From: an uncultured Alphaproteobacteria bacterium
GTDB lineage: Bacteria; Pseudomonadota; Alphaproteobacteria; Rhizobiales; Xanthobacteraceae
Length of the DNA stretch: 64,000 bases
Assembly: GCA_963765365.1 (NCBI GenBank)
Contig: CAVXWL010000036.1
Location: forward strand, 18,502-82,501
Direction of reading: 5' to 3'
The notes under the pieces were generated by a model. It was not told the DNA's origin, made no database searches, and saw only the letters and a program-made list of their open reading frames with translations. The translations under genes and the position numbers were made by a program. Positions 26,809 through 49,757 of this stretch are shown in pieces (within the stretch, counting starts at the first letter, position 1; every line of letters begins with the position of its first letter).

Positions 26809-26822
26809 TTGACATAGATCAA
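26809..26822. promoter_or_regulatory. FNR/FixK-type box TTGACATAGATCAA
   Basis: Exact TTGA-N6-TCAA palindrome in the divergent intergenic region between 26699 (-) and 26918 (+). Confidence 0.7.
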
Positions 26823-26917
26823 GTTTGTCGGGGCCTAACCGGTTATTGTGTTTCAATGTCAATATGTTCACTCTGCCTCCACGCGGACGATCTGCCTCGT
26901 CAAGGTAAGGAGCGTAA

Positions 26918-27340
26918 ATGTCCGCGCAGCTGAATCCGGCAGCTTCGCACCATCTGCCAATCTTCATTACAGCTCCGGGCGACACCGACGTGCTCATGGT
27001 CGTGGCGGCCCTTACGCTCCTGGCTGCTACGCTGGCGTTCGGTCTTATATTTTTGTACCTGCACACGCTGCCGGAACGCATGGCGCACCGGTCACACAAA
27101 TTGCAATTTGAGATCGTCGCGGTGCTGGGCTTGCTCGCCCTGTTCACCCATACACACGTGTTCTGGGTGGCGGGCCTCTTGCTCGCCTTGATCGATATTC
27201 CTGACTTTGGCGGCTGGATGGGCCGGATCACGGCGGCAGTCGAGAAAATTGCGGGACAGAAGTCTGATGCGGGCGGACTGACTGCGCTGGACGGAACGCA
27301 GCCAAGCGAGGTTACGTCGAAGGAGCCCGCGGATGCTTGA
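26918..27340 (+). CDS. Small inner-membrane protein (YibI/DUF3302-like by context)
   Basis: Two or three TM helices; AAGGAG RBS; overlaps the HlyD-family gene by 8 nt. Confidence 0.5.
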   Translation: MSAQLNPAASHHLPIFITAPGDTDVLMVVAALTLLAATLAFGLIFLYLHTLPERMAHRSHKLQFEIVAVLGLLALFTHTHVFWVAGLLLALIDIPDFGGWMGRITAAVEKIAGQKSDAGGLTALDGTQPSEVTSKEPADA

Positions 27341-28562
27341 GCTTCTTCTGTGTTCTCTCGTGACGATCCTTCCGGATTATCTGTACCGCCGGTACCGGCA
27401 GGGCAAGCGTTTCGGGCACGAAATCACGCTCTACTCGGTATGGTATGAGCTGCGATGGGGCATCACCACATGCCTGATGCTGACCGTCTGCCTCATCACG
27501 CTCATTTTCTATTTTCACCCGTCGACCGACAGCGTCACGCTGTATTTCAGAACAGTCCCGATCCTCCCCGAGACGAGCGGTCGTGTCGCCAAGGTTTATG
27601 TCGATTTCAGCGGTCCTGTTAAGCAGGGCGCCCCGATCTTCAAGCTCGATAGCTCCAAACAGGAAGCCGCGGTAGAAACCGCACGGCGCAAGATCGCGGA
27701 AGTCGAGGCCGATATCGTGGCGGCGAAAGCCGACATCGTGAAAGCCGACGCGCAGATTCGGGAAAGCCAAAGCAACTATCAACAGGCGGTCGACGAGCTT
27801 GACACCAAGCAGGAGCTGCAGCGGCGGAATTCGGGAACTGTACCCGAACGCGAGATCGAGCGGCTCCAGCTGCTGGTGCAGGGCCGTAAAGCGTCGCTCG
27901 AAGCCGCGATCGCGACAAAGGATGTTGAGGAATCGCAAGTGACGAATGAGTTTCCTGCCGAAAAGTCCAGTGCCGAAGCGTCGCTGGCCCAGGCGCAGGT
28001 CGATCTCGACAAGACCGTCATTCGCGCCGGCGTCGATGGCCGGGTCGAGCAATTTGCGCTGCGGGTCGGCGATGTCGTCAATCCGCTGATGCGTCCGGCC
28101 GGCGTGTTGGTTCCCGACAAGACCGGACGCAACCTGGTCGCTGGCTTCGACCAGATCGAAGCCCAGATCATCAAGCCGGGCATGATCGCCGAAGTCGCCT
28201 GCGTGTCGAAGCCATTCACCATCATCCCGATGGTTGTCACCCAAGTTCAGGATTTTATTGCCGCGGGCCAATTCCGCGGCGGCGATCAATTAATCGATCC
28301 GCAGCAGGTGACTCGGCCCGGGACGCTGCTTGCGTTCCTTGAGCCGCTCTACGACGGCGGCATCGATGACGTAACGCCGGGCAGCAGCTGTATCGCCAAC
28401 GCCTATACCAACAACCACGATCTGATTGCGTCGCCGGAGACCGGCACGCTGAAGGGTTTGGTACTGCATGCCGTCGATGGCCTCGGCCTCGTCCATGCGC
28501 TGCTGTTGCGGATCCAGGCGCTGGTTCTTCCGTTCCGGACGCTCGTCTTCAGCGGCCACTAA
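27333..28562 (+). CDS. HlyD-family membrane-fusion/secretion protein (YibH-like)
   Basis: N-terminal TM helices, long coiled coil (QEAAVETARRKIAEVEADI..), VIRAGVDGRVEQF lipoyl/barrel motifs. Confidence 0.8.
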   Translation: MLELLLCSLVTILPDYLYRRYRQGKRFGHEITLYSVWYELRWGITTCLMLTVCLITLIFYFHPSTDSVTLYFRTVPILPETSGRVAKVYVDFSGPVKQGAPIFKLDSSKQEAAVETARRKIAEVEADIVAAKADIVKADAQIRESQSNYQQAVDELDTKQELQRRNSGTVPEREIERLQLLVQGRKASLEAAIATKDVEESQVTNEFPAEKSSAEASLAQAQVDLDKTVIRAGVDGRVEQFALRVGDVVNPLMRPAGVLVPDKTGRNLVAGFDQIEAQIIKPGMIAEVACVSKPFTIIPMVVTQVQDFIAAGQFRGGDQLIDPQQVTRPGTLLAFLEPLYDGGIDDVTPGSSCIANAYTNNHDLIASPETGTLKGLVLHAVDGLGLVHALLLRIQALVLPFRTLVFSGH

Positions 28563-28587
28563 GACGAGTTGGCAAATTGCGCTGAAG

Positions 28588-29313
28588 TCAGCCGTTGATG
28601 CGGCGAAGCGTCGAACGGTTTCGCAGGACCACCTGTCGGGTCGACACTTCGATCCCGCCGTGATCTTTGAGAAATTTCAGCGTCCGCGACACTGTCTCTA
28701 TGGTCAGCCCGAGATAATCGGCGATGTCCTGACGTAACATCGGCAATTCAATCGAGTCTCCCGTCGATCGCTTGGCCATTTCGAGGATGAACCAGGCGAC
28801 GCGCTCCTCAGCGGTTTTGGCGAGCAGCAATACGCGATCTTGCACACGGGCCAGTTCACGGGCGGTAAGCATCAGCAGCTGGCGCGCTACCGCCGCGTCG
28901 CTACTTGCCAAGGCCATCAGCGCTGCGCGTTTGACAACTAGAATCTTGGCGTCCGATATGGCTTCTGCCGCGCGGTCGTGCCGATCGATATGTTCGAGCG
29001 CGAAACTTTCGTCCGCCAGGTAGAACGAGTTGATGTGGCGGCGGCCGTCGCTGAGGATTTTGTAGGTACAAACAGTGCCGGCCAGAACTTTGTAGATTTG
29101 GTTGGCCGGCCCCTCGTCGCCGAAAATCTGTTTGTTCCGAGAAAAGGACCTGACCACTCCCACGCTGAGCATGGCGTGCTCAAGCGCCCCGCTGCTCCCT
29201 GTATTCGGAGCGACCTGCTTGTATTCCAGTAACGCAAGCGGATTTTGGACTGCCAGATTTTGAGAAACACGGAGAGCCGTCGCCTGCGTCTGCATATGCC
29301 GCCCCATTCTCAA
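28588..29313 (-). CDS. Crp/Fnr family transcriptional regulator, FixK-like
   Basis: cNMP-like barrel (IYKVLAGTVCTYKILSDGRR) and C-terminal HTH RQDIADYLGLTIETVSRTL; no N-terminal Cys cluster, so FixK-like rather than Fnr-like. Confidence 0.85.
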   Translation of the reverse strand: MRMGRHMQTQATALRVSQNLAVQNPLALLEYKQVAPNTGSSGALEHAMLSVGVVRSFSRNKQIFGDEGPANQIYKVLAGTVCTYKILSDGRRHINSFYLADESFALEHIDRHDRAAEAISDAKILVVKRAALMALASSDAAVARQLLMLTARELARVQDRVLLLAKTAEERVAWFILEMAKRSTGDSIELPMLRQDIADYLGLTIETVSRTLKFLKDHGGIEVSTRQVVLRNRSTLRRING

Positions 29314-29451
29314 TGGTTTCGACAGCAGTGGACCGTACGGAATGAGGAATATGCTGCCGCCGGCCTCGCTTCGATCACTTCGCGGAGCGATTGTGCGATA
29401 TCGGATTCGCGATCGGAAGCTACACGAAAGGACGGGTGGCTCAACTTTGGT

Positions 29452-29874
29452 TTAGGGGCGGCCACCCACCGCGGCGGAAAGGCAATCGATCAAAGATCGC
29501 TCGTCAAATGGCTTGGTCAAGAAGCCGATGGCGCCGGCGCCCAACGCATGCTCGCGTCGTCTGTCATCCGGAAAGGCGGTGATGAAAATGATCGGGATGC
29601 GATAGCCCTTGCTGCCGAGCTCGCGTTGGAGGTCCAAGCCGCTTAGGCCCGGCATTTGCAAATCGGTGATGACGCAAGCCGTTGTGTTCAAGACGTCGGA
29701 CTCAAGAAATTGCTCCGCGGACACGAACGCGAACGCCTCGTAGCCAAGCGATTCGACAAGCACCCGTATCCCATCCCGGGCCCAGCCATCGTCGTCGACG
29801 ATCGAGATGGTGGCTGGCTTAGGCAATTTGAGAAGCCCCGCTCCGCAAGATCTTTTCCTTTGTAAATTCGCCAA
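29452..29874 (-). CDS. Receiver-only response regulator
   Basis: ISIVDDD, VITDLQMPG, GFLTKP receiver motifs; no output domain. Confidence 0.85.
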   Translation of the reverse strand: MANLQRKRSCGAGLLKLPKPATISIVDDDGWARDGIRVLVESLGYEAFAFVSAEQFLESDVLNTTACVITDLQMPGLSGLDLQRELGSKGYRIPIIFITAFPDDRRREHALGAGAIGFLTKPFDERSLIDCLSAAVGGRP

Positions 29875-29919
29875 ATCCTGTCTTGGCTCATATCCACAGG
29901 TGAGGTGTCATTCCGAAAA

Positions 29920-30561
29920 TCATCTGGATCGCCCAATGCCGAGCGTGTCGGCAATTCGCACCAAATCGGCAACGGAGTGCGCCTCCATTTTTCTCATCAG
30001 GTTATGCCGATGGGCTTTTATGGTGCCTTCGCTGAGGCCGATCCGGGCCGCGGTCTCCTTGTTCATCATTCCTGCAATGACATGGGCCATTACTTCGCGC
30101 TCGCGCTCGCTGAGCATTGCGTAGCGGCGCCGCATTTCCGATAGCTCGTTATCCAACCGCCGTTCCTTGCGATCGCGGGCAAGCGCCGCGCCGACGGCGT
30201 TCAGCACGTCCTGTTCGCGCAGCGGCTTGGTGAGGAAATCTACGGCGCCGGACTTCATGGCGTCCACCGTCATCGGGATGTCGCCATGTCCGGTAATGAA
30301 AATGACGGGAATCTTGTTCCGCGCCTCGATCAGCTCTTTTTGAAAATCAAGGCCGTTTATTCCCGGCATGCGAATGTCCAGTATCAGACAACGCGAATCG
30401 CCGGACGGGCTGCTGCGTAAAAAGTCTTGCACCGATGCGAAAGTGATGCAGCCGAGGCCGACCAATTCAAGCAAATGCTTGAGGCCGCTGCGGACGTCGG
30501 GATCGTCATCCACGACAAAGACCACAGAATCTGCATCGGGCTGGATTAGCGTCGTCGCCAT
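29920..30561 (-). CDS. FixJ/LuxR-type two-component response regulator
   Basis: Start at MATTLIQ; VFVVDDD, LILDIRMPG, DFLTKP receiver plus LSEREREVM..ETAARIGLSEGTIKAHRHNLMRKM HTH. Confidence 0.9.
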   Translation of the reverse strand: MATTLIQPDADSVVFVVDDDPDVRSGLKHLLELVGLGCITFASVQDFLRSSPSGDSRCLILDIRMPGINGLDFQKELIEARNKIPVIFITGHGDIPMTVDAMKSGAVDFLTKPLREQDVLNAVGAALARDRKERRLDNELSEMRRRYAMLSEREREVMAHVIAGMMNKETAARIGLSEGTIKAHRHNLMRKMEAHSVADLVRIADTLGIGRSR

Positions 30562-30842
30562 CAGGACGTCCTTTGAGGGGTCTCTCATAAATATTGAACC
30601 ACGCCGGCCGCGCGGAGAAAACCGCGCGCGGACGCCGATGGCACAATCAACATCAGGAGGAACGGGTTCAGTCATGACCGTTTCGCCCGGCTGCGAATGT
30701 GCGCCCTTCGGCTTTGTCACCGGCCGAGGCTGCGCTGAGGAGTTTCGCCGAACTGGAAGAGGGCGGTCTCCGGGACGCTGGGTACGCGTCCGGCGCACAT
30801 TCTGCTCCAAAGTCCATGTTAAAGAGGGCCGGGGACGAGGCT

Positions 30843-30856
30843 TTGATTTACATCAA
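30843..30856. promoter_or_regulatory. FNR/FixK-type box TTGATTTACATCAA
   Basis: Exact TTGA-N6-TCAA, about 100 nt upstream of the kinase start at 30949. Confidence 0.7.
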
Positions 30857-30948
30857 ATATCGCGACAATTGGCGATCCCGGCTCCTGCGTCACTTTTGCC
30901 GTCCGGTGGGCCTGTTCGCTGGCGTGTATTGCGTTAGGATGGCGCGCA

Positions 30949-32599
30949 TTGCGACAGCATAAGGCTAATTCATCGACTGCGGAGGCACGCGTGGCCGGAC
31001 GCGGGGCGACCGACGGATTAGATTTCTCGATTGCAACAATTCCGCCGACGCCGCGGCAGCGAAAGCTCGCCGTCGGCGTCGTGGCGGTGCTGCTCGTTGG
31101 ATTTGCGGTTGTCGCTCCGTTCGCCGCGACGCGATTGCCGCGCCTGGACAGTTTCGTTCCCACCGTCGAGGCCATCGTCCTCGTGGCCGACCTCGCGACG
31201 TCAGCACTGTTGTTTAGCCAGTACGCCAATGTGCAGTTGCGCGGCCTCCTGATTTTGGCGGACGGTTATCTTCTCTCGGCGCTGATCGTCGTTCCGCACG
31301 CGCTTTCATATCCGGGCGCATTTGCGCCCGGCGGACTATTCGTCTCGGGACTTCAGGTTACGCCGTGGCTTTATACGGCCTGGCATTTGCTGTTCTCAGT
31401 CGCGGTCCTCGTCTATGCATGTCTCAAGCGCGAGACGCAAAACGATATTTCAGGCGCTGCCACGGCGTATCCTGCGATTTATTGGAATGTCGCTGCGGTC
31501 GCGACCTTCGTCTGTGCGTTTACATGGCTCGTTACGGCGGGAGAAAAGTTCGTACCGCGGCTGATTGCCGACGAGGTCAGCTTTACGCCGATGGCGAGTT
31601 ATGTGACCGGCGTGACCGTGGCGACAACCATTTCTGCGCTTCTGGCACTTTGGGTTCGGCGCAATTCGCTCCTCGATCTTTGGCTCATGGTTGCAACCGT
31701 TGCGGCGCTCGTTGAACAGGCGATCGTCAGCTTATTTATCGGCGGCCGCTTCAGCGTGGGCTTTTACACAAGCCGTCTATTCTCGGTCGTGGTCTCGACG
31801 ATTGTCCTGGTCGCGCTGCTTTCGGAAACGATTACACTTTACGCACGGCTGGTGCGCGCCAACCGCGCGCTGCAGCGTGAGCGCGACAGCAAGCTGCTGA
31901 ATCTCGAAGTGGCCGTGGCGGCGATCGCGCACGAGGTCCGCCAGCCCTTGACCGGCATCGCCACGATGAGCGCGGCCGCACGCCGGTTCCTGTCGCGCGA
32001 ACCGCCGGATATTCCACGCGTTCAGGCGATATTGGATGAGGTCGCAGGCGCCGGCTTTCGCACCAACGAGGTGATTGAAAGTGTCCGCGCGTTGTTCCGG
32101 AGTCCTGAGCAGGATCAGCATCCGGTGGACCTCAACGGCGTGACGCTGGAAGCCCTGCAATTGCTGCGCCGGGACTTCGATGATTACGGTATCATTGTAA
32201 GCACGGAGCTGACATCCGAATTGCCGCTGATCATGGGGAATAAAGGGCAATTGCGGGAGGTCGTCCTGAAATCTGATGCAAAATGCCATCGATGCCATGG
32301 CGGGCGTTATGGATCGGCGGCGGCGCCTGCGCGTCGAGACCGAACGGCGCGAGGGAACGGTTGCAATATCCGTGGAAGATAGCGGTCCTGGGATCGATCC
32401 AAAAAGTCTGCCGGGCATCTTCGATCCGTTTGTGACCACAAAGACGAATGGCATGGGATTGGGCCTCGCCATCTCGCAGATAATCGTCGAACGACATAAC
32501 GGCCAGCTTGCGGTGGTCCCCGGCGCCGTCCGTGGTGCGCGATTTCAAGTCACGTTTCCGATCAAACCAGCAAGCGATGCGGCGGGGGCAACCGGTTAA
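30949..32599 (+). pseudogene. Membrane sensor histidine kinase, frameshifted between HisKA and HATPase (A-run 32269-32271)
   Basis: Multi-TM N-terminal half, H-box AHEVRQPLTGI, then GQLREVVL | NLMQNAIDAM..DSGPGI..GMGLGLA continues in the next frame (ORF 32276-32599); CTGAAATCTGATG would read LNLM with one A fewer. Confidence 0.8.
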
Positions 32600-32621
32600 G
32601 TTCTCCGCGCGCGGCGTAAAT

Positions 32622-33425
32622 TCAATATCGCTCGGTTACGAAGCGCCAATTCTTCAATGGCGCCTGGTCGTCATATTTATTTTTCTTCGAACGCGGCGGC
32701 AGCGTCACTTTTTCACGCGGCAGTTTTTTGTAGGGGATGCGCGAGAGAAGATGTGAAATGCAATTCAGCCGTCCGCGCCGCTTGTCATCGGTCCGTACGA
32801 TGTACCAGGGCGCGATTTTGGTGTCGGTTGCTTCCAGCATGAGGTCGCGAGCTCGAGAGTAATCGTACCAGTGGCTATAGGACTCGACATCCATCGGGCT
32901 CAATTTCCATTGCCGCATCGGGTCGTCGATGCGCGCCATGAAACGACGCTCCTGCTCCTCCATGCCGACTTCCAGCCAGATTTTGATCAGAATGATGCCG
33001 GCTTCGGCGACGTAACCCTCGATCGTCGGACAAAGCTCCAAAAAGCGCTTGTGCTGCTCCTTGGTTGCAAATCCCATGACGTATTCGACACCCGCCCGAT
33101 TATACCAGCTGCGATCGAAGATCACGACTTCACCCGCCGCGGGAAATTGAGTGACGTAGCGTTGCAAGAACATCTGGCCCTTCTCGCGGTCGCTTGGGGC
33201 CGGTAGGGCGACGACTCGGAAAACGCGGGGGCTCACCCGTTCGGTGATTGCCTTGATGGTGCCGCCTTTGCCCGCGGCGTCTCGCCCTTCGAAGACGATG
33301 ATGATCTTCAGGCCCTTGGCTTTAATCCATTCCTGCAGGCGGCAAAGTTCGACCTGGAGCTTGCGCAGCTCTTTTTCGTAGGCTTTGCGTTTGAGGGCTT
33401 CCGGCGCCTTAGCTTTTCCTGCCAT
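32622..33425 (-). CDS. ppk2: Polyphosphate kinase 2
   Basis: Start at MAGKAK; FEGRDAAGKGG Walker A, FDRSWYNR, typical PPK2 layout. Confidence 0.9.
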   Translation of the reverse strand: MAGKAKAPEALKRKAYEKELRKLQVELCRLQEWIKAKGLKIIIVFEGRDAAGKGGTIKAITERVSPRVFRVVALPAPSDREKGQMFLQRYVTQFPAAGEVVIFDRSWYNRAGVEYVMGFATKEQHKRFLELCPTIEGYVAEAGIILIKIWLEVGMEEQERRFMARIDDPMRQWKLSPMDVESYSHWYDYSRARDLMLEATDTKIAPWYIVRTDDKRRGRLNCISHLLSRIPYKKLPREKVTLPPRSKKNKYDDQAPLKNWRFVTERY

Positions 33426-33502
33426 GACCAATTCACCCCGACGATGCAATGAACCCAACTCGTTGAAACCATTGATGGTAGCCCCAAAATAAATACGCAT
33501 TC

Positions 33503-33516
33503 TTGAGATAGATCAA
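33503..33516. promoter_or_regulatory. FNR/FixK-type box TTGAGATAGATCAA
   Basis: Exact TTGA-N6-TCAA between ppk2 (-) and 33571 (+). Confidence 0.7.
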
Positions 33517-33570
33517 ACTCTATCGCGGTGGAGGCGGCTAAGGAGTATCGGATTTGCGAGGACTGGTGCC

Positions 33571-34044
33571 ATGGCCGAAGCGACGAAGTCTGCGACGTCA
33601 GATCCCCTGGCGGGCTTGCCGAGCGCCAAAGAGGTGATGGCGGAAATTGCCCGCAAGGAGGCCGAGAAGGCGTCGGCGGCGGTGCAGGAAATGTCGGCGG
33701 CGGACGCCGAGAAAAAGGCTTTGCTGGAGAAGTTTTCCAAGCCGTCCGGCGTTTCCGACGAAGATCGGCTCGAGCGCGCAGCCGCCATCATCAGGCGCGC
33801 CGCCAGCAATGGCCTGTTCGAGGTGGAGATCGTTCGCTTTCCCAACGAGATGTGCACCGACCGCGGCCGCGCGATCAATCAGGGCGAAGCAGGATGGGAA
33901 AAGACTCTGACGGGATTCCCGAAGGAGCTCTATGACTTCTGGGAACGGCACCTAAGGTCCAAGGGCTACAAAGTCGGATTCCGAATTGTGGATTTCCCTG
34001 GCGGCGTGCCCGGCGACGTCGGCATGACGCTACGCTGGAATTAG
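33571..34044 (+). CDS. Conserved hypothetical protein (157 aa)
   Basis: Coherent ORF with a charged helical N-terminal half; FixK-type box about 60 nt upstream. Confidence 0.55.
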   Translation: MAEATKSATSDPLAGLPSAKEVMAEIARKEAEKASAAVQEMSAADAEKKALLEKFSKPSGVSDEDRLERAAAIIRRAASNGLFEVEIVRFPNEMCTDRGRAINQGEAGWEKTLTGFPKELYDFWERHLRSKGYKVGFRIVDFPGGVPGDVGMTLRWN

Positions 34045-34081
34045 CGGCGTCGCGAATTTATTTCTCTCGATCCTTCGTCCG

Positions 34082-34753
34082 TCAGGCGGGCTTGGGTTTT
34101 TTGGTCTTCCGCTTTTTATTCTTTGTACGGCCGGCCAAGTCCTTGGCGACGATGTCGTCGATTTTCTGCATGACCATGGTGTGAAGTCGCGGCGATTTGT
34201 CGATCGTCGTGTGCGAAAGACCGGTCTCCGCGGTGAGATCGAAATTCGTGAGTTCACCCTGAAAGCCGGGTCCTGCGGCGACCCGCTTACCGAAGCCGTT
34301 TTGCTGAAACAAGTTCACCAGGTGCAGAACATTCTTCGGCACCGGCTGCGGGCTGGTCGCGTCGAAGGTGACGATCAGTTCGATCGGAATATTCTGCCGA
34401 TTGAGCTCATTGGCAATGTCGAAGGTCGCATTGGCTCCCAGGGAGTGACCGATAAGCACGATGATCGGCTTGTGGCCGCGGGTATATTGGTCGGCAATGC
34501 GCTTGGCCGCGGTAGGCCAGCCATTCGTGCTGTAGACGCGCGCGCTATATCCTTGGCGGTTCAGCTTTTCCGTGAGCGTGTCCATGCCGCGGGAGAAAAT
34601 GTCGGCAAGCCCGCGAAATAGATCGACCTGAACCTGCTTTGCGGTAGGGGCGTCTGGCTGCGCCGCATTCGCCAATCCGCACCAATCCATCACCGGCAAA
34701 ACCGTGGCGCCAGCAAAGAGTCTCCGAAGAAAAAGTCGCCGCTCTATCTGCAT
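34082..34753 (-). CDS. Secreted alpha/beta-hydrolase (lipase/esterase-like)
   Basis: Start at MQIERRLFLRRLFAG (Tat-like signal), nucleophile elbow GHSLG; Lys-rich tail. Confidence 0.65.
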   Translation of the reverse strand: MQIERRLFLRRLFAGATVLPVMDWCGLANAAQPDAPTAKQVQVDLFRGLADIFSRGMDTLTEKLNRQGYSARVYSTNGWPTAAKRIADQYTRGHKPIIVLIGHSLGANATFDIANELNRQNIPIELIVTFDATSPQPVPKNVLHLVNLFQQNGFGKRVAAGPGFQGELTNFDLTAETGLSHTTIDKSPRLHTMVMQKIDDIVAKDLAGRTKNKKRKTKKPKPA

Positions 34754-34797: not shown

Positions 34798-35253
34798 TTA
34801 CTTGATCGATTTTTGCGATGACCATCCGCGGCCGGCGATGGTCAGGCCGCCGAGATCAGGCACGATCTTTCCGGTGTCGCGACCGTGCAATTCTACAACG
34901 ACGCCTTTGGTGTTCTTCAGCCTTGCCGGGTGTGCCGCGGTGGCAACGGCAGAGTTGCCTTCAGGGCCAGCATAAGGGCCCAGAATGTCGGACGGGCTTT
35001 GCAAATTTGTAGCCCTGCCGACCAGATAGCTCCGCGCGGACTTGAATTTGCTGGCGTCGATGCCACCGACATCGATGCGATATCGGCGACCATGATAGAA
35101 CAGGCTGCCGCTGCCCTCGATGTGGGCGCCCGATTTTATGAATATGATGTGGAGCTGGCCGTCCTCCGCAAACGACGGCTTCATCGCGGCGCCGAGCAAG
35201 GTAATTGCGGCGGCGGATGCGGCAATAAAATTCCTTGGTCGTGATCCAAGCAT
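34798..35253 (-). CDS. Secreted Gly-rich conserved hypothetical protein (paralog of 26259-26699)
   Basis: Internal Met MLGSRPRNFIAASAAAITLLGAAMKPSFA is a signal peptide; its ATG overlaps the repaired GNAT stop (TGATG at 35251-35255). Confidence 0.6.
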   Translation of the reverse strand: MLGSRPRNFIAASAAAITLLGAAMKPSFAEDGQLHIIFIKSGAHIEGSGSLFYHGRRYRIDVGGIDASKFKSARSYLVGRATNLQSPSDILGPYAGPEGNSAVATAAHPARLKNTKGVVVELHGRDTGKIVPDLGGLTIAGRGWSSQKSIK

Positions 35254-35861: not shown

Positions 35862-35875
35862 TTGATCTATATCAA
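35862..35875. promoter_or_regulatory. FNR/FixK-type box TTGATCTATATCAA
   Basis: Exact TTGA-N6-TCAA between the GNAT gene (-) and 35931 (+), about 60 nt before the ATG at 35931. Confidence 0.7.
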
Positions 35876-37427: not shown

Positions 37428-37436
37428 CAATGCCGA

Positions 37437-40217: not shown

Positions 40218-42455
40218 ATGCCGTCGCACCAAACGGACCAACCGTCGCCTGGTGCATTTGGGGTCTTTGGCCTGTTTGCGCCGGCCCTCGAATACGCATT
40301 CGACGCCGCTCAGCGCAGCATCCTGTTCCTGGATGTCATGCGGCAGCGCGGCAATCAATATCGCGAGCATCTTGCCGAAACGGCGCCGCATGTTCTCGAT
40401 TATGAAGTCGAGGTTGTCGTTGACGGCCGCAAGCTCAATCGCCCGGTCAACTATGCGCTGGTCCGGATCATTCCGCCGCCGGGCGCGAAAATCGTTCCGA
40501 CGCAAAGGCCGTTTGTCGTGGTCGACCCGCGCGCGGGGCATGGCCCGGGGATCGGCGGCTTCAAGGCCGACAGCGAAATCGGCGTTGCGTTCAAGGCTGG
40601 TCATCCATGTTACTTCGTCGGCTTCCTTCCGGAGCCGATGCCCGGGCAGACAATCGAAGACATCGCGGCCGCGGAAGCGATCTTTTTGAAGCAGGTCGCG
40701 GAATTGCATCCGCAGGCAGACGGCAAGCCTTGCGTCATCGGCAATTGCCAGGCCGGATGGGCGGTGATGATGCTGGCCGCCATGCGTCCGGAGTTGTTCG
40801 GGCCAATCATCATCGCGGGCACGCCGCTGTCGTACTGGCAGGGCGTTCATGGCAAATATCCGATGCGCTACTCGGGCGGCCTTCTCGGCGGCAGCTGGCT
40901 CACTGCGCTCGTCGGCGACCTTGGCCACGGCAAATTCGACGGCGCCTGGCTGGTGCAGAATTTTGAAAATCAAAATCCGGCCAACACGTTGTGGACCAAG
41001 CAGTACAATCTCTATTCGAAGATCGACACCGAGGCACCGCGATATCTCGGCTTCGAGCGGTGGTGGGGCGGCCACGTCAATCTCAACGCCGAGGAAATCC
41101 AGTTCATCGTCGATGAGTTATTCGTCGGTAACAATCTCGCGGCCGGAAAAATTCAAACGTCCGACGGCACGGCCATCGATCTCCGCAATATCCGTTCGCC
41201 GATCGTCGTGTTCTGCTCCAAGGGCGACAATGTCACGCCGCCGCAGCAGGCGCTGGGATGGATTCTCGAACTTTACGACAATGTGGACGAAATCCGCGCT
41301 TATGGCCAAACCATCGTCTATACAATTCACGAAAATATCGGCCATCTCGGGATCTTCGTGTCCGGCGACGTTGCTCGGAAAGAACATGGCGAGTTTTCCA
41401 GCAACATCGATCTGATCGACACGCTGCCGCCCGGTCTCTACGAGGCGGTTATTGAGCCGCGGCCCGAGGATGCAGTGGATAGCGACCACGGTGCGTGGAT
41501 CATGCGCTGCGAAGCAAGGACGCTCGATGATATCCGCGCGCTTGGCGGCAATGACATCGAGGATGAGCGCCGTTTCGCGGCGGTCGATCGTTTGTCGCAG
41601 GCCAATGCCGCGCTTTACCGCACCTTTATGCAGCCAGTCGTACGCGCCTTCACCAATCCGCAATTGGCGGAATTGACGCGGCAGCTGCATCCATTGCGGC
41701 TTCAATACGAATTTTTTTCAAACGCCAATCTCATGATGGCACCAGTTGCCACGTTAGCGGACCAGGTCCGGAGAAATCGCCAGGCTGCCGCGCCTGACAA
41801 CCCATATGTCAAACTGCAGCAGAATGTGTCCCGTCAGATTGTCGCCGCGCTCGATACCTGGCGCGAGGCCAGCGAGGCTTTCGCTGAAAAGACGTTCATG
41901 GCGCTCTACAGTTCGCCGCTGTTGCAAGCCGCCCTTGGCGTCGATCCTGCATCATCACAGCCGCAGCGGAAAGCTGCCAAGAGCGAGATCCATCAGGCGC
42001 TCAAGGAGAAGCAAATCGCCGAACTGAAATCGCAAATCGCGATCGGCGGGCTGCGTGAGGCGACCATCCGAGGGCTTCTGTACGCCGGAATGGCGCGCAA
42101 GTCGGTTGACGAGCGCGGATTCGACGTCGTGCGGCGTGCTCGCAAGGCTTACACCGACCTTTCGCTTTCGGCGTTCAAGAAAATCGTGCGCGAACAGTTC
42201 TATATGCTTCTCATCGACCAGGAGGCGGCGCTCGCCGCCATTCCTGAGATGCTTCCGAACGATTTTGGGGCGCGGCGTCAGGCATTGGATCTGATTGCCG
42301 AGGTTTTGGAAGCGCGCGGCGAATATGCCCCGGAAGATCGCGAGCGGATGCAGCGCGTCGTTGCTCTCTTTGGCGTCGAGAGACAACCGGGCAAATTAAG
42401 AACCGTCTCGATCGTTTCCAACAATCATATGAAAAAGCCGGCCAAAGGTTCCTGA
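40218..42455 (+). CDS. DUF3141-type large alpha/beta-hydrolase-fold protein (PHA synthase/depolymerase-like)
   Basis: 745 aa; GNCQAGW nucleophile-elbow-like motif, conserved N-terminal 450 aa pattern recalled from DUF3141 proteins found next to pta/ackA. Confidence 0.65.
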   Translation: MPSHQTDQPSPGAFGVFGLFAPALEYAFDAAQRSILFLDVMRQRGNQYREHLAETAPHVLDYEVEVVVDGRKLNRPVNYALVRIIPPPGAKIVPTQRPFVVVDPRAGHGPGIGGFKADSEIGVAFKAGHPCYFVGFLPEPMPGQTIEDIAAAEAIFLKQVAELHPQADGKPCVIGNCQAGWAVMMLAAMRPELFGPIIIAGTPLSYWQGVHGKYPMRYSGGLLGGSWLTALVGDLGHGKFDGAWLVQNFENQNPANTLWTKQYNLYSKIDTEAPRYLGFERWWGGHVNLNAEEIQFIVDELFVGNNLAAGKIQTSDGTAIDLRNIRSPIVVFCSKGDNVTPPQQALGWILELYDNVDEIRAYGQTIVYTIHENIGHLGIFVSGDVARKEHGEFSSNIDLIDTLPPGLYEAVIEPRPEDAVDSDHGAWIMRCEARTLDDIRALGGNDIEDERRFAAVDRLSQANAALYRTFMQPVVRAFTNPQLAELTRQLHPLRLQYEFFSNANLMMAPVATLADQVRRNRQAAAPDNPYVKLQQNVSRQIVAALDTWREASEAFAEKTFMALYSSPLLQAALGVDPASSQPQRKAAKSEIHQALKEKQIAELKSQIAIGGLREATIRGLLYAGMARKSVDERGFDVVRRARKAYTDLSLSAFKKIVREQFYMLLIDQEAALAAIPEMLPNDFGARRQALDLIAEVLEARGEYAPEDRERMQRVVALFGVERQPGKLRTVSIVSNNHMKKPAKGS

Positions 42456-42490
42456 CCTAGCCGGATCTTCAGCCAAGCAATGGGGTCACG

Positions 42491-43487
42491 ATGCCAGCGG
42501 AAAGAGAAAGCGAAATAGGTACGATCCGGGCCCACGGCCCAGGCGCCCATCCGCCGGAATCGAAATACGAAAGGCTGATCGGCCGGGCAAAAAGCGTCGT
42601 CCCAGGCAAGACCATTGTCGTGCATCCTTGCGACAAGTCGTCGCTTCGCGGTGCGATCGAGGCAGCCCAACTCGGAATCATCAGCCCGATACTTGTCGGG
42701 CCCAAATCCAAGATCGAAGCGGCCGCCCGGCAAAGCAAGCTCGATATCAGCGGGTTTGAGATCGTCGATGTGGCGCATAGCGATGCCGCGGCCGAGCGCG
42801 GCGTAGAGCTCATTCATGAAGGGCGCGGCGAGCTCTTGATGAAAGGCAGTTTGCACACCGACGAACTGATGCGGGCGGTGACCGCTTCCAAGACGGGTTT
42901 GCGAACCGAGCGGCGCATCAGCCATGTCTTCATCATGGATGTGCCGACCTATAGCGAGACCCTGTTCATCACCGATGCCGCTATCAATATCTTTCCCGAT
43001 CTCGACGCCAAGCGCGACATCATTCAGAACGCGATCGACCTCTTCACGGCGGTAGGTCTCGGTACGCCGCGGGTTGCGATCCTCTCCGCGGTCGAAACCG
43101 TTACCTCCAAAATTCCGTCGACAATCGAAGCGGCCGCGCTTTGCAAAATGGCCGATCGCAAGCAGATTACCGGCGGCGTTCTCGACGGCCCGCTTGCATT
43201 CGATAATGCGATTGATCCGGAAGCGGCAAGGATCAAGGGGATCGAGTCTCCGGTCGCCGGCCGGGCGCAAATTCTGATCGTGCCCGATCTCGAGGCCGGC
43301 AACATGCTGGCGAAAAATCTGATCTTCCTGTCGAAGGCGGAATTCAGCGGGGATCGTCCTTGGAGCGCGGGTGCCGATCGTGCTCACCTCGCGTGCGGAT
43401 TCGGTGCGAAGCCGCATGGCGTCCTGCGCCGCCGCCGTGATTTATGCCGCCGCGCGGCGGGAGACCCCAAACAAGGCCGTGGTGTAG
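42491..43487 (+). pseudogene. pta: Phosphate acetyl/butyryl-transferase (PTA_PTB family) with frameshift in G-run 43349-43352
   Basis: ..ILVGP.., LMKGSLHTDELM, DAAIN, PDLEAGNMLAKNL; after ..SKAEFSG the next frame gives IVLGARVPIVLTSRADSVRSRMASCAAAVIYA..-TAG (43485-43487). Confidence 0.8.
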
Positions 43488-43493
43488 TCGGCC

Positions 43494-44672
43494 ATGGACG
43501 CGGTTCTCGTTGTCAATGCGGGCTCTTCCAGCGTTAAATTTCAGATTTTCGAACATTCGCCGTCTGCGGCGCCGATATGTCTCGTCAAAGGCCAGATGGA
43601 CGGGATCGGCACCAAGCCGCGGCTGCGCGCCACCGACGGCAACGGGACGCCACTCGTCGATCAGACTTACGGGCCAGGCGAGATAGCCGATGGGCCGGCG
43701 GCGATCGCGGCGGTCGGTGACTGGCTGCGCAATACCCAGAAACTCGCACTCGTTGCGGTCGGCCACCGCGTCGTACATGGCGGGCCCGATTACGATCGTC
43801 CCATTCTGCTCGACTGCGATGTGCTGACGCGGCTGGAGAAGTATTGTCCGCTCGCGCCGCTCCACCAACCCAACAACCTTGCGCCTATTCGCATGCTGAT
43901 GGAACGGCGTCCTGATCTGCCTCAGGTCGCTTGTTTCGACACGGCATTTCATCGCTCGCACGGACCGCTCGCTGACAGATACGCGATCCCGGAAAAGTTT
44001 TATCGCGAAGGCGTGCGGCGCTACGGTTTCCACGGTCTATCCTACGAATATGTCGCCGGTCGGTTGCCTGAAATCGCGCCGGATATAGCCCACGGGCGTG
44101 TTGTCGTCGCCCATCTCGGCAGCGGTGCATCGATGTGCGCGCTGTTTGAGGGAAAAAGCGTCGAAAGCACCATGGGCTTTACCGCGCTGGACGGCCTGCC
44201 GATGGGAACCCGTCCCGGCCAGATCGACCCGGGCGTCCTTCTTTATCTGTTCACGGCGAAGGGCATGAGCGCGTCGGCGGTGGAAGACCTGCTCTATCGC
44301 GACTGCGGCCTCAAGGGGATGTCCGGTATCAGCAACGATTTGCGGGAACTGCTGACGAGCGAGGCCCCGGCCGCGGCATTGGCCATTGACTATTTCGTTT
44401 ATCGCATCGCGCTGAATGCCGGCATGCTGGCGGCCGCGCTGGGTGGGCTGGACGCGTTTGTCTTTACCGCGGGCATCGGCGAAAATTCGGCGACGATCCG
44501 TTCGCGCATCGCGCAGAAGCTTGCGTGGCTCGGCGCAAATTTCGACGAACAAGCGAACGAAAGCAGCATGGCGCTGATATCCGGTCCGGGCAGCAAGATA
44601 AAGATCTACATCGTGCCGACAAACGAAGAGTTGATGATCGCCCGCCATACGCTGCAGCTTCTTCGGAAATAG
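43494..44672 (+). CDS. ackA: Acetate (short-chain acyl) kinase
   Basis: [49 protein letters not shown] motifs. Confidence 0.9.
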
Positions 44673-44704: not shown

Positions 44705-44718
44705 TTGATGTAGATCAA
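44705..44718. promoter_or_regulatory. FNR/FixK-type box TTGATGTAGATCAA (core of a 24-nt perfect palindrome 44700-44723)
   Basis: Exact TTGA-N6-TCAA about 75 nt upstream of the pflB start. Confidence 0.75.
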
Positions 44719-44786: not shown

Positions 44787-47068
44787 ATGGAGGCACCGGC
44801 CGGCAGGCCCGAAGGTGGCACGCATGATCGGGCTTGGAGATCGTTCACTCCGGGCGATTGGCGCACGACAATCGACGTGCGGGACTTCATTACGCGCAAT
44901 GTCAAGCCTTACGCCGGCGACGAGAAATTTCTTGTAGGGCCGTCCTCCCGCACCAAGGCCGTTTGGGCCCGATTGCAGCCTTATTTCGAGCAGGAGCGGA
45001 AAAAAGGCGTGCTTGCCGTCGACGCCCACACGCCTTCGACGCTGCTCGCCCACAAAGCCGGCTATATCGATAAGGACAACGAAGTCGATCGTCGGGCTGC
45101 AGACGGACCAGCCTTTCAAGCGCGCGATATTCCCGTACGGCGGCTTGCGGATGGTGGAGGCCGGCCTGAAGGCCGCGGGCTTCGAAGCCGATCCCCAGGT
45201 CCATCGAGACCTTCACCAAATATCGCAAGACGCACAACGACGGCGTGTTCGATGCCTACACGCCCGAAATCATGAAATGCCGCAGGTCGGGCATCATCAC
45301 CGGCCTGCCGGATTCCTATGGCCGCGGGCGCATCATCGGCGACTACCGCCGCGTCGCCCTCTACGGCGTCAAGCGCCTGCTGGAGGTCAAGCAGGCCGAA
45401 CGCGCCCAGATCGACGATATGTGGCCGACCGACGAAATCATCCGTCAGCGCGAGGAACTCGCCGAGCAGATCCGCGCGCTCGGCGATCTGGTCGCCATGG
45501 CCAAGCTTTACGATTGCGATATCACGCAGCCGGCCATCGATGCCCAGGAAGCGGTGCAGTGGACTTACCTCGCTTATCTTGGCGCCGTAAAGGAAGCCAA
45601 CGGCGCGGCGATGTCGATCGGCCGCATCTCGACCTTCCTCGATATCTTCATTGAGCGCGACATGCGTGACGGCGAACTGGATGAAGAGGGCGCCCAGGAA
45701 TTGTGGGACCAGCTCGTCCAGAAACTACGCATCGTCCGGTTCCTGCGCACGCCGGACTATGATGCGCTGTTCAGCGGCGACCCGTATTGGGCGACCGAAT
45801 GCGTCGGCGGTCATCGGTCTGGACGGACGATCGCTGGTCACCAAGAGCAGCTATCGCATGCTGCACACGCTGACCAATCTCGGTCCTGCGCCAGAGCCCA
45901 ATATCACCGTATTGTGGTCGAAGCAGCTGCCGGACAATTTCAAACGCTACTGCGTCAAGGTCAGCCGCGACACGTCATCGCTGCAATACGAGAACGACGA
46001 CCTGATGCGTCCGTATTGGGGCGACGATTACGGCATCGCCTGCTGCGTTTCTGCGATGCGGCTCGGCAAGCAGATGCAATTCTTCGGCGCGCGCGTGAAT
46101 CTCGCCAAGGCGCTGCTCTACGCCATCAATGGCGGCCGCGATGAAATGTCCGGCGACCAGATTGCGCCGCCGGCGCCGCCCGTGACCGGCGAGATACTTG
46201 ACTACGATGAGGTCTTCGCGAAGTTCGATCACATGATGGAGTGGCTGGCGCGCACCTACGTGCATGCCATGAATTGCATCCACTACATGCACGACAAGTA
46301 TTTCTACGAACGCCTTGAGATGGCGCTGCACGATCGCGACGTCTTGCGCACCATGGCGTTCGGCATCGCCGGGCTGTCGGTGGTCGCCGACAGCCTTGTC
46401 GGCGATCAAATACGGCAAGGTCCACGTTATTCGCGACGCTACCGGTCTGGCCGTCGATTATCGCATCGAATACGACGGCATCAATGCCGTGCCGCAATTC
46501 GGCAACAACGACGATCGGGTGGACAGCATCGCCGCGGAACTCGTCACGCGGTTCATGGAGAAGATCCGCAAGCATCCGACCTATCGCAACGCGACCCATA
46601 CCCAGAGCGTACTGACCATCACGTCGAACGTGGTCTACGGCAAGGCGACCGGCAACACGCCGGATGGGCGCCGCAAGGGCGAGCCGTTCGGGCCCGGTGC
46701 CAACCCGATGCACGGCCGCGACAGCCATGGCTGGCTGGCGTCGTGTCTGTCAGTTGCGAAGTTGCCCTACAAGGATGCGTTGGACGGCATCAGCTACACC
46801 GTATCGGTTGCGCCGCAGAAGGCGCATCTGTCCGACACCGAACTCGTCGACGCCGCGGTCAAGGCTTTCGACATGTATTTCGGTCAAGGCGGCTTCCACA
46901 TGAATTTGAACGTCATCGACAAGGAGACGCTCGAAGACGCCATGAAGAATCCGGACAAGTACCCGCAGCTTGACGATCCGGGTATCCGGCTATGCGGTCA
47001 ACTTCATTCGCCTCACGCGCGAGCAGCAATAGGACGTGATCAACCGCACCTTTCACGGCCAAGTTTGA
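44787..47068 (+). pseudogene. pflB: Pyruvate formate-lyase (glycyl-radical enzyme), 5 frameshifts plus 1 premature TAG
   Basis: Collinear with E. coli PflB as I remember it, across frames 0,1,2,0,1,2: breaks at 45087, 45202, 45812, 46398, 46972; IACCVS active site and RVSGYAV glycyl-radical motif present; TAG at 47030-47032 where PflB has Gln (EQQ-Q-DVI). Confidence 0.9.
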
Positions 47069-47083
47069 GCCGGGAGGCAATCG

Positions 47084-47914
47084 GTGTCACAACTCGGTGA
47101 ACTGGAGCCAGGAAGCCGGTACGATCTGCATGTCGGGATTTCGCCCGACGCGCCGGATGAGAGCGCTCTGCGGGACGATGCCGAAGGCGCTTTCGGCTAT
47201 GCGCACTCCTACGAAACCTCGTCACGCTACGACGGCCCGGGATTGCGCGTCGTTCTGTTCGTCTCTGGCTGCCTCCTTCGCTGCACCTATTGTCATAACC
47301 CCGATACCTGGCATCTGAAGGACGGCACCTACGTCTCGGCGAAGGATGTCATCGACCGACTTGCGGGTTTTGCGCCGTCGCTTCGGGTCCTGGACGGCGG
47401 CCTCACCATCTCCGGCGGCGAACCGATGGTTCAGCTCGCTTTTACCCGGCGCATCCTGGCGGGCGCAAAGCAGCTTGGCCTGCATACCGCGATCGAAACC
47501 TCGGGGTTTCTGGGCGATCACGCCGACGAGCGATATCTCGCCGCGCTCGATCTCGTCTTGCTCGACATCAAGAGCTCGGATCCGGACACCTACCGTGCTG
47601 TCACCGGGCGCGAATTGGCGCCGACGTTGCGCTTCGCCGAGCGGCTGGCTGCGATCGGCAAGCCGGTGTGGGTGCGGTTCACGCTCGTTCCAGGCCTTAC
47701 CGACGACCCCGGCAACGTCGAAGGCATCGCCCGCTTTGTCGCGCCGATGAAGAATGTCGAATGGGTCGAGGTGCAGCCATTCCATCAGCTCGGCGCCTTT
47801 AAATGGAAAGCGATGCATCTCGAATACAAGGATGCGCAGACTGCACCGCCGACTGCCGAACTGAAGGATCGCGTTCTTGAACAATTCCGTGCGGCCGGTT
47901 GCCGCGTGCGCTAG
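47084..47914 (+). CDS. pflA: Pyruvate formate-lyase activating enzyme (radical SAM)
   Basis: [14 protein letters not shown] (CxxxCxxC), [14 protein letters not shown]; intact ORF. Confidence 0.85.
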
Positions 47915-47961
47915 CCGCCATTGCAGCGGCGCGAATAGAATGCAGGGCCGGAGATAAGATC

Positions 47962-49566
47962 ATGCTCGATTTTGCACGCGGTATCATCGGTTCGCAACCG
48001 ATCCTGACCGCCTTTCTCGCCATCGGATTGGGCTATCTCGTCGGCCAGATCAGCATCGGCGGATTTTCGCTCGGTGTAGGCGCGGTGCTGTTTGTTGGTC
48101 TTGCGCTTGGCGCATTCGCGCCGAAGGCGCAGATCGTCGGCCCCGATTGGACTGATCGGGCTGATCATGTTCCTCTACGGCGTCGGCATTCTCTATGGCC
48201 GGCAATTCTTCGAGGGTATGACGGGCGTCGAAGGGCGAAAATACAATCTGCTTGCTCTCGTTGCCGTTGCCGTCGGCCTCGCTGTCGCCCTTGGGCTCGG
48301 TCACGTCTTCGGCGTAAAAATCGGTCACACGCTTGGCATTTTTGCCGGTTCGATGACCAGCACCGCCACGCTGCAGGCGGCGCTCGACACGATGAAAAAC
48401 ACCGAGCCGTCGATCGGCTATTCGGTTGCCTATCCCTTTGGCGTCATCGGCCCGATTCTGTGCATGTATTTCATGACGCGCATGGTCCAGCCGAAATTTC
48501 CGCCGAAGGCGCCGCAAATGCATATGGGCGAGATCGCGCTCGGTCCAAATTTTGGTGGCCAGCCGCTCCATGAACTCAGCAAGGACCTTCCGAGCGGCAT
48601 GCAAGTGACGATGGTACGCAAAGGCGGCCAAAACTACCTGCCTTCCGCCGCTTTGCTGCTTGAAGCCGGGGACGCTCTTTTGGTCGTCGCCGAACGGCAG
48701 GACGACATTGCCGCGACCGCGGCGCGTTTGGGCACGCTCGAGCCGGGACGCATCGTCAAGGACCGCGCGGATCTCGACTACATCCGCGTCTTTGTCGGCA
48801 AGGCGAATGTTGTCGGCGTGCCGCTGGCGAAGTTGTCTTTGCCCAGCGGACTTTCCGGTACAGTTGCTTCACGTCAGGCGGTACGACGTCGACCTGGTTC
48901 CTTCGCCGGATTTGACGCTGGAGTTCGGCGATCGGGTCGGCGTTCTGATGCCCCCGGATCGCAAGGAAGAAATCCGGCGCTACTTCGGCGATACCGTGAA
49001 ATCGGCAGCCGAATTCAGCTATGTCTCGCTGGGCGTCGGAATGGTGCTCGGGCGTTTTGATCGGTCTCGTTCCAATTCCGATCCCTGGCGTCGGCACCGT
49101 GACGCTCGGTATCGGCGGCGGTCCGCTGATCGTCGCGCTGATTGCCGGCAAACTCCGCCGAACCGGCCCGCTGCTTTGGGTCATGCCGCTGCCAGCGAAT
49201 ATCGTGCTCCGCAACTTTGGCCTCGCGCTGTTCCTGGCTACGGTCGGGGTCAATGCCGGCCAGCCATTTTTGAAGACGATAACGGAAACCGGATTCACGC
49301 TGTTCTGGATCGGCGTCGCAGTTCTCTTGGCTACGGTCCTGATTGTACTGCTGGTCGGATATTATGTCTTGAAAATCGCCTACGACGACCTGATGGGGAT
49401 CGCTGCCGGCGCCACCGGAAACCCGGCGATCCTGATCTACGGCACGCGCATGGCGCCGACCGAACGTCCCGATGTCGGCTACGCCATGATCTTTCCATCG
49501 ATGACCATCGTTAAAGTGATCGCAGTGCAGATCGTCGGTTTGATGTTTGGGGTCGGCATAAGCTGA
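47962..49566 (+). pseudogene. AAE-family (aspartate:alanine exchanger / YidE-YbjL-like) transporter with 3 frameshifts
   Basis: MLDFARGIIGSQPILTAFLAIGLGYLVGQI.. then frames 1,2,0,1; breaks at C-run 48141-48144, about 48849, and G-run 49050-49052; central TrkA-C-like segment, duplicated membrane halves. Confidence 0.8.
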
Positions 49567-49743
49567 AAGGCGTTTAGATCGCCAGCCATGGACGATCAAT
49601 CGTTGTCTCAAACGGGATGGTCCTTCACAGTTTGCGGTGTGTTCCACTGGTCGAATGTTGGTGGCCGCGGCAGACCCCGCTCTTCGGTTTGCAGGGCTGG
49701 ACCAATTTTCCATCGTCGTAAGAGGACGAACGCAGGCATGTAT

Positions 49744-49757
49744 TTGATTTAGATCAA
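49744..49757. promoter_or_regulatory. FNR/FixK-type box TTGATTTAGATCAA
   Basis: Exact TTGA-N6-TCAA about 125 nt upstream of the ORF starting at 49879. Confidence 0.65.

Follow-up and report, generated by a model that had tools for sequence, protein, structure and literature searches.

The closest described counterparts of the locus analysed here are sets of genes that regulators of the FNR/FixK family control. The locus itself is a cluster of seven FNR/FixK-type boxes (TTGA-N6-TCAA) around genes for a FixK-like and a FixJ-like regulator, in a 64-kb stretch of contig CAVXWL010000036.1 (the whole stretch is hereafter the window) from an uncultured soil Xanthobacteraceae lineage known only from metagenomes. 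In Pseudomonas aeruginosa, pyruvate fermentation through ackA-pta reportedly depends on Anr and serves anoxic survival (Eschbach et al. 2004; Trunk et al. 2010, as cited in PMC3721108). The likeness to the window lies in an FNR-family box driving ackA-pta, by which an aerobe makes substrate-level ATP without growing; unlike the window's regulator, Anr is a true Fe-S oxygen sensor, and its target genes are dispersed rather than clustered with it.

In Bradyrhizobium, the FixK2 regulon as defined by experiment has among its members an acetate kinase paralogue, a resistance-nodulation-division (RND) adaptor, a response regulator and a polyhydroxyalkanoate (PHA)-synthase-like gene, and the FixK2 box is TTGA/C-N6-T/GCAA (PMC9104804). 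The window shares with the FixLJ-FixK2 system of Bradyrhizobium diazoefficiens its regulator subfamily (no Fe-S cysteines, ETVSR in the recognition helix), its 14-bp box and some of its target classes (acetate kinase, efflux adaptor, response regulator and PHA-synthase-like gene). It departs from that system in having a divergent MASE4 kinase in place of the heme-PAS kinase FixL, Leu in place of Cys183, a box upstream of the regulator operon and pflBA as a target, whereas fixNOQP, fixGHIS, hemN and denitrification genes are absent from the window cluster.

Low oxygen induces the lxa locus of Burkholderia cenocepacia J2315, which has 17 TGA-N6-TCA motifs in 50 genes and includes ackA and pta along with genes for an Anr-like regulator, a two-component system, a PHA synthase and a sulphate transporter (Sass et al. 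2013, PMC3721108). Both regions are compact and of atypical composition, with many intergenic TGA-N6-TCA motifs (7 in ~25 genes in the window), and both encode AckA and Pta beside an in-cluster Anr/FixK-like regulator and a two-component system, as well as a PHA-synthase-like enzyme and a protein of the sulphate-transporter family. The likeness is, so far, one of gene content; lxa belongs to the Betaproteobacteria and the window to the Alphaproteobacteria. Genes for universal stress proteins, alpha-crystallins and ribonucleotide reductase dominate lxa, whereas the window has pflBA and ppk2, and its scanned open reading frames (ORFs) gave no match to universal stress protein (Usp), alpha-crystallin (Hsp20) or ribonucleotide reductase models. 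In Caulobacter, FixK boxes lie upstream of fixK and fixJ, with a predicted feedback loop (PMC4999443, PMC7078487). The FixLJ-FixK-FixT system of Caulobacter crescentus resembles the window in these feedback boxes, in a single-domain receiver inside the module and in its FixK, whose NCBIfam model is the best match of the window's regulator; it differs in that FixT is a 4-Cys Fe-S protein, whereas the window receiver has two Cys, and in that the window kinase is not FixL.

The locus is a further case of a familiar low-oxygen control circuit, of the same kind as the FixK2 regulon of Bradyrhizobium and the lxa locus of Burkholderia, and it leaves the current understanding of FNR/FixK regulation unchanged. 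It provides a clean, testable regulon prediction, with seven promoters, a candidate regulator and a feedback loop. We place at roughly 75% the probability that the seven palindromes are class II sites of a FixK-type CRP/FNR activator, that the likeliest binder is the product of 28588-29307, and that this protein activates about seven units for low-oxygen survival.

Seven exact boxes confined to intergenic DNA

Both strands of the window were scanned exhaustively for TTGA-N6-TCAA, which occurs exactly seven times:

26809-26822, box 1, TTGACATAGATCAA, between a secreted Gly-rich protein gene (minus) and a small-membrane-protein/HlyD-adaptor operon (plus)
30843-30856, box 2, TTGATTTACATCAA, between the fixJ-like/receiver/fixK-like string (minus) and a MASE4 histidine kinase gene (plus)
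33503-33516, box 3, TTGAGATAGATCAA, between ppk2 (minus) and a 157-aa hypothetical gene (plus)
35862-35875, box 4, TTGATCTATATCAA, upstream of a DUF3300 gene, between a GNAT gene (minus) and the DUF3300 gene (plus)
40086-40099, box 5, TTGACTTAGATCAA, between fabI-sulP (minus) and DUF3141-pta-ackA (plus)
44705-44718, box 6, TTGATGTAGATCAA, 33 nt past the ackA stop and 75 nt before the pflB start
49744-49757, box 7, TTGATTTAGATCAA, 129 nt upstream of a 77-aa secreted protein gene

These are the sites that a first-pass annotation of the window had reported, with the same coordinates and sequences. Its estimate was about one chance match or fewer in 64 kb; dinucleotide shuffles of the window contained 0.61 boxes on average and at most 3 (n = 100). 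To place the boxes relative to genes, we used a curated gene map that combined ORFs, Pfam/NCBIfam matches and the gene calls of near-identical public contigs; gene calling based on GC content at third codon positions (GC3) was uninformative. On this map, intergenic DNA makes up 7,134 nt (11.1% of the window) and holds all seven boxes against 0.046 expected, an enrichment of about 150-fold, and coding DNA holds none against 0.26 expected. The intergenic location of every site, asserted in the earlier annotation, is thus borne out by the comparison of intergenic with coding density that it had proposed as a check, and its remark that intergenic DNA outside 26-50 kb holds no box also stands, as the whole-window scan returned only those seven. 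Neither looser search of the window rose above chance: one-mismatch variants gave 21 extra sites against ~15 expected, and the relaxed FixK2 form TTGM-N6-KCAA gave 3, all in coding DNA, against ~3.8 expected. The number of sites is therefore exactly seven.

All seven have TTGA and TCAA half-sites 6 bp apart, the FNR/FixK arrangement. T7, A8 and A10 are common to all of them, giving the consensus TTGAynTAgATCAA, and with T, C or G at position 5 and A at position 10 in each, they fit the narrower form TTGA(C/T/G)-N4-ATCAA given before. The 135 boxes collected from relatives have the same preferences (T/C at position 5, A/G at position 10). A larger repeat unit around the boxes was sought and none was found; the flanks are unrelated and only the 14-bp core is common to the sites, which are therefore not copies of a dispersed repeat. 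Three details of the first-pass annotation needed revision. Five sites (1-5), not four, lie in divergent promoter regions, while sites 6 and 7 lie between co-directional genes; and although the sites are indeed upstream of genes, the distance from box centre to the likeliest start codons is 45 to 288 nt rather than 60-130 nt. In addition, frameshifts interrupt pflB, the transporter gene after pflA and the sensor kinase gene as assembled here.

Conservation of the boxes in relatives

Two metagenome contigs, L011 and L012, are ~85% identical to the window at the DNA level, and in them boxes 1-4 stand as invariant islands amid diverged or inserted intergenic DNA; around box 4 in L012, the remaining sequence has largely diverged. 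We extended the comparison to 80 soil-metagenome loci encoding AckA relatives of 66-83% identity (579 kb in total). These contain 125 exact boxes against 3-3.7 expected, an enrichment of ~35-fold, with at least one box in 59 of the 80 loci. Of the 20 DUF3141 genes in these relatives, 19 have a box in the 300 nt upstream, as do 9 of the 11 sulP genes and the homologues of the 157-aa gene (5/7) and of the 77-aa gene (4/4); within 300 nt after ackA, a box is found in 25 of 73 relatives. The association of a box with the DUF3141-pta-ackA operon is thus conserved over many soil metagenome loci, and one relative (L025) carries a box identical to box 5. The order fixK, receiver (REC), fixJ and divergent kinase is also kept in L011, L012 and a third contig, L010, which is nearly identical to the window.

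A scan of a genome collection with the regulator returned only Bradyrhizobium paralogues (42-50% identity, no synteny), which we used for comparison of box density alone. The nine Bradyrhizobium loci, centred on a different FixK paralogue, hold 2-10 boxes per 20 kb, which indicates that dense box clusters near fixK genes are usual in the FixK family. Two boxes are conserved in these loci, at ~1.1 and ~2.5 kb ahead of the regulator gene, and box centres are GC-richer (e.g. TTGAGCCAGGTCAA) than the TA-centred boxes of the window. Distant matches in a plasmid collection, from Rhizobium sp. Pop5 and Azospirillum, were set aside as footprinting support, as both lack an exact box. The DUF3141 and DUF3300 products had no match when looked up as exact proteins, probably owing to start-codon or assembly differences.

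Promoter geometry and predicted targets

A -10-like hexamer of the form TAnnnT stands at class II spacing from six of the seven window boxes. Box 1 has TATTGT (26844-26849) toward the plus-strand operon, and box and hexamer are both kept in L011 and L012. Box 2 has TAACAT on the reverse strand (30816-30821), toward the regulator genes; the box is kept in L011 and L012, as is the hexamer in the form TAAyrT, common to the three genomes. TACCAT lies on the ppk2 side of box 3, a box that is kept in L012, and boxes 4, 6 and 7 have TAAATT, TAAAAT and TAATTT, respectively, on their plus sides. Across 120 unique boxes, TAnnnT begins 28.5-30.5 nt from the box centre at 47, compared with a mean of 5.1 and a maximum of 14 at other offsets; because homologous promoters are among them, the counts are less independent than they look, but the signal is nonetheless large. 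Such spacing puts the box near -41.5, the class II arrangement of FNR/FixK sites.

The hexamers point to the membrane-protein/HlyD operon, the fixJ-like operon, ppk2, DUF3300, pflB and the 77-aa gene as targets of sites 1, 2, 3, 4, 6 and 7. Besides the regulator string, the predicted targets are:

26918-28562, plus, operon of a 140-aa membrane protein and a 409-aa HlyD/EmrA-family periplasmic adaptor
32622-33425, minus, polyphosphate kinase 2 (ppk2)
35931-37427, plus, DUF3300 protein with a signal peptide and a Gly/His-rich repeat tail
37437-39991, minus, operon of a fabI-like enoyl reductase (39188-39991) and a SulP/STAS transporter (37437-39155)
40218-44672, plus, operon of DUF3141 (PHA-synthase-like alpha/beta hydrolase), phosphate acetyltransferase and acetate kinase
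44787-49566, plus, operon of pflB (44787-47065), the pflA activase (47084-47914) and an Asp-Al_Ex/TrkA_C transporter (~47.95-49.57 kb)
49879-50112, plus, 77-aa secreted protein

Pfam and NCBIfam models agree with most of the gene identities given in the first-pass annotation (Crp/FNR, FixJ-like, PPK2, GNAT, DUF3300, FabI, DUF3141, Pta, AckA, PFL and PflA). The HlyD-family adaptor is weakly supported, and its 140-aa partner, named YibI there, has a sub-threshold DUF3302 match only (E = 0.0015). We ruled out the GNAT gene as a target of box 4: its start is 45 nt from the box centre, which is too near for a class II site serving it, and in L012 an insertion of ~300 bp parts the box from the GNAT gene while leaving the distance to the DUF3300 start unchanged.

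The FixK-like regulator and its apparent operon

The regulator genes and the divergent kinase gene lie in the middle of the box cluster:

28588-29307, minus, FixK-type CRP/FNR regulator, 239 aa, assigned by domain, PDB and NCBIfam matches
29452-29826, minus, stand-alone receiver-domain protein, 124 aa, between the fixJ-like and fixK-like genes
29920-30561, minus, FixJ-like response regulator, REC (PF00072) plus LuxR/GerE helix-turn-helix (PF00196), 213 aa
30991-32599, plus, MASE4-HisKA-HATPase_c histidine kinase, 535 aa, intact, in L010

The regulator, placed by the first-pass annotation at 28588-29313, is indeed of FixK type and is identical (100%) to a protein of a Xanthobacteraceae metagenome-assembled genome (MAG). 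It combines a cNMP-binding domain (PF00027) with Crp-type helix-turn-helix domains (HTH_Crp_2, PF13545, and PF00325), and its best PDB match is Bradyrhizobium FixK2 (4I2O, E = 5e-45, ~48% identity over the aligned region), far above FNR (E ~ 1e-16) and DNR. Its recognition helix, GLTIETVSRTL, aligns with GLTLETVSRAL of FixK2, so that ETVSR, an E--SR motif that reads TTGAT, is identical. By the criterion of Dufour et al. (PMC2908626), FixK proteins are without one or more of the four [4Fe-4S] cysteines of FNR. The single Cys of the window protein (residue 80, none being N-terminal) aligns with no FNR ligand, which places the protein in the FixK group; to judge from its sequence, a regulator without Fe-S ligands cannot sense oxygen itself. 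At the position of the redox-sensitive Cys183, a feature of the Bradyrhizobium/Nitrobacter/Rhodopseudomonas FixK2 group only, it has Leu (PMLRQDI vs PM(C/S)RRDI) and in that respect falls outside that sub-group. The best NCBIfam model is FixK of Caulobacter (NF050806, 197.9 bits, under the 300-bit equivalog cut-off), followed by Fnr at 83.6 bits. It is the only Crp/FNR gene in the window.

The FixJ-like protein, also predicted in the first-pass annotation, was recovered by Pfam and NCBIfam; its best NCBIfam model is FixJ (204.6 bits, under the 255-bit cut-off). Given these scores, we call the two proteins FixK-like and FixJ-like, as they are not demonstrably orthologous to FixK and FixJ. Starts that would extend the fixJ-like product to 251 or 296 aa were rejected, because substitutions in 30562-30675 show no codon-position bias and a good ribosome-binding site precedes the 213-aa start. 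The receiver protein between the two has two Cys and a normal phospho-acceptor pocket, and the string of fixJ-like, single-receiver and fixK-like genes matches the fixL-fixJ-bll2758-fixK2 order of USDA110.

The three genes form an apparent operon with a box of its own, which suggests feedback on its own synthesis; the fixJ-like start is 288 nt from the centre of box 2. Between the predicted box-2 promoter and that start lies a conserved non-coding leader of ~247 nt (30562-30808), in which substitutions show no codon-position bias and which could hold a second promoter or an RNA element. The gap between the receiver and fixK-like genes (29308-29451) also stands out for its conservation in L011 and L012, where long runs such as CCTAAACCAAAGTTGAGCCA and GATATCGCACAATCG are invariant. 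No full FixK box lies in this gap, which could be a FixJ-dependent promoter for the fixK-like gene.

In the divergent kinase, MASE4 (residues 52-284) is followed directly by HisKA (309-371) and HATPase_c (418-525). No PAS or heme domain was matched in this protein, and the layout has no room for one, so that it does not qualify as FixL.

Proposed mechanism and alternatives

Our working model is that the FixK-like protein occupies each palindrome as a dimer and, from this position near -41.5, recruits RNA polymerase. By analogy with FixLJ-FixK, its level would be set by the phosphorylated FixJ-like regulator, which could in turn receive its phosphate from the divergent MASE4 kinase or from a FixL that another part of the genome may encode. 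Box 2, together with its conserved -10, would act on the regulator string through the ~247-nt leader, so that the protein probably feeds back on its own synthesis. The FixK-like protein would then switch on about seven units: pflBA with its transporter, DUF3141-pta-ackA, fabI-sulP, ppk2, DUF3300, the membrane-protein/HlyD pair and the small secreted proteins. The set appears compact as judged within the 64-kb window. Substrate-level ATP would arise from conversion of pyruvate to acetyl-CoA and formate, then to acetyl phosphate and finally to acetate. The targets would further provide polyphosphate-nucleotide exchange, possibly a reductant sink (FabI and the PHA-synthase-like DUF3141 protein), transporters and envelope proteins. 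By these means, an aerobic soil bacterium could survive micro-oxic or anoxic periods. The pflB/pflA, pta-ackA and ppk2 targets fit anoxic energy conservation, and the locus suggests that these soil Xanthobacteraceae, nominally aerobes, have a pyruvate-formate-lyase/acetate-kinase programme dedicated to microsites poor in oxygen.

Several points weigh against this model. Which protein binds the sites, whether it activates, what signal induces it and what purpose the set serves are inferred, and the low-oxygen signal is the weakest step: no FixL/heme-PAS kinase, fixNOQP or hemN gene was found in the scanned window ORFs, which leaves analogy and the kind of targets as the basis of the oxygen link. 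FNR, FixK and DNR paralogues of alpha-proteobacteria recognise virtually identical motifs, and a genome carries several of them (PMC2908626), so that binding of the boxes by the local regulator, to which its recognition helix points, is likely and unproven. Both regulators score below their equivalog cut-offs, and the -10 statistics draw in part on homologous promoters. Box 5 has only a weak -10 candidate, TGcAATAAA toward fabI, and none convincing at the expected distance. Lastly, the exact box is missing at DUF3141-pta-ackA-fabI of Rhizobium sp. Pop5 and at pflB of Azospirillum, which suggests that membership of the regulon is lineage-specific.

The shared motif also admits a reading in which the boxes are real and are mainly served by a CRP/FNR paralogue encoded outside the window, either a cysteine-bearing protein of FNR/FnrN/AadR type or a FixLJ-driven FixK2 orthologue, with the local gene a second-tier target like Bradyrhizobium FixK1 or NnrR. 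A local kinase without heme-PAS, a box ahead of the regulator operon, as expected of a downstream tier, and the box density near another FixK paralogue in Bradyrhizobium (2-10 per 20 kb) all accord with it. Against it, the regulator genes remain linked to the box-bearing genes in L010-L012, and the local protein has the full ETVSR helix, although both readings are compatible; we regard an outside regulator as unlikely. The same circuit might instead answer a signal other than oxygen, with the MASE4 kinase sensing membrane or energy state or a metabolite in a general stress or stationary-phase module. The kinase has no PAS or heme domain, the regulator lacks both Fe-S ligands and the redox Cys183 of FixK2, and the DUF3300 protein, the HlyD adaptor and the secreted proteins have no obvious oxygen link. 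PflB/PflA, however, is an oxygen-labile glycyl-radical system that is useful only without oxygen, and ackA-pta of Pseudomonas is Anr-dependent; ackA and pta are induced by low oxygen in Burkholderia (PMC3721108), in micro-oxic Bradyrhizobium the acetate-kinase paralogue bll2517 depends on FixK2 (PMC9104804), and the FixK-family regulators characterised so far act in micro-oxic control, all of which makes a different signal very improbable.

That the boxes are a chance cluster, or dispersed repeats or ends of mobile elements with no regulatory role, is effectively excluded. Such an origin has in its favour only that the palindrome is AT-rich, of low complexity and set in intergenic DNA that is itself AT-richer, whereas none of the 100 shuffles reached seven boxes, the intergenic expectation is far below one, the flanks are unrelated, box positions are kept relative to orthologous genes over dozens of diverged loci, and the -10 signal is phased. 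The assignment of the boxes to the FNR/FixK type, made in the first-pass annotation, is in turn supported by their enrichment and conservation, the -10 spacing, the adjacent FixK2-like regulator and the target genes.

Going beyond the FixK-type model itself, we tentatively consider that the MASE4 kinase may be a FixL-independent input, a possible alternative to FixL for a FixJ-FixK cascade. Together with the FixJ-like regulator, the single receiver and a cysteine-free, self-activating FixK, it would make up a portable, self-contained module controlling pyruvate-formate-lyase fermentation, widespread in uncultured soil Xanthobacteraceae and set in differing chromosomal contexts in close relatives. 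We think it rather unlikely that this extension holds as a whole.

Probable assembly defects and genomic setting

Positions 22533-34353 of the window are 99.92% identical to L010 (JBAURM010000053.1, of the Xanthobacteraceae MAG GCA_049581205.1), from which they differ by two homopolymer indels (25834 and 32269) and seven substitutions, five of which (30464, 31038, 32404, 32648 and 34243) are G-to-A changes inside GANTC, the CcrM methylation motif. The 1-nt homopolymer insertion at 32269 breaks the kinase gene, which is intact in L010. Further along, pflB has five frameshifts and falls into six reading-frame segments, the pieces being 67-93% identical to an intact relative PflB (82-93% for the four main pieces), while pflB is intact in 13 related loci; the transporter after pflA (~47950-49566) is spread over at least three frames. 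Substitutions in GANTC and homopolymer indels are typical of methylation-linked long-read basecalling errors, suggesting that the frameshifts in the window are artefacts; they look like long-read assembly errors, not gene decay, though this is not proven.

Genes for a thioesterase-like protein and the GNAT protein lie on the minus strand between the 157-aa hypothetical gene and box 4. The GNAT ORF itself (34798-35823, minus, 341 aa) joins a GNAT domain to a copy of the secreted Gly-rich protein encoded at 26259-26699 (minus), a family that no Pfam or NCBIfam model matched. In L012, GNAT is a separate 188-aa gene, and the fusion may be a frameshift artefact. In the 3' part of the DUF3300 gene (36830-37172), three 36-nt tandem units are followed by 21-27-nt units of the GGCGGCCATCGC type, which encode the Gly/His-rich C-terminal tail.

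The flanks of the cluster encode ordinary metabolism and transport. At 6045-7259 (minus), 20 kb from the cluster, genes for Hpt-domain and receiver-domain proteins lie side by side, with no box and no evident link to it. Rfam and tRNA scans of the window found a tRNA-Thr only (54043-54117, minus), and at this tRNA ends a stretch of lower GC content (0.57-0.60 over ~26-54 kb vs 0.63-0.65 in the flanks); no integrase was found. Left of ~26.25 kb, the neighbours differ among relatives, with DUF992, creatinase and RND pump genes in L011 and an AraC regulator in L012. The segment from ~26000 to 54120 may be a transferable or rearranging island.

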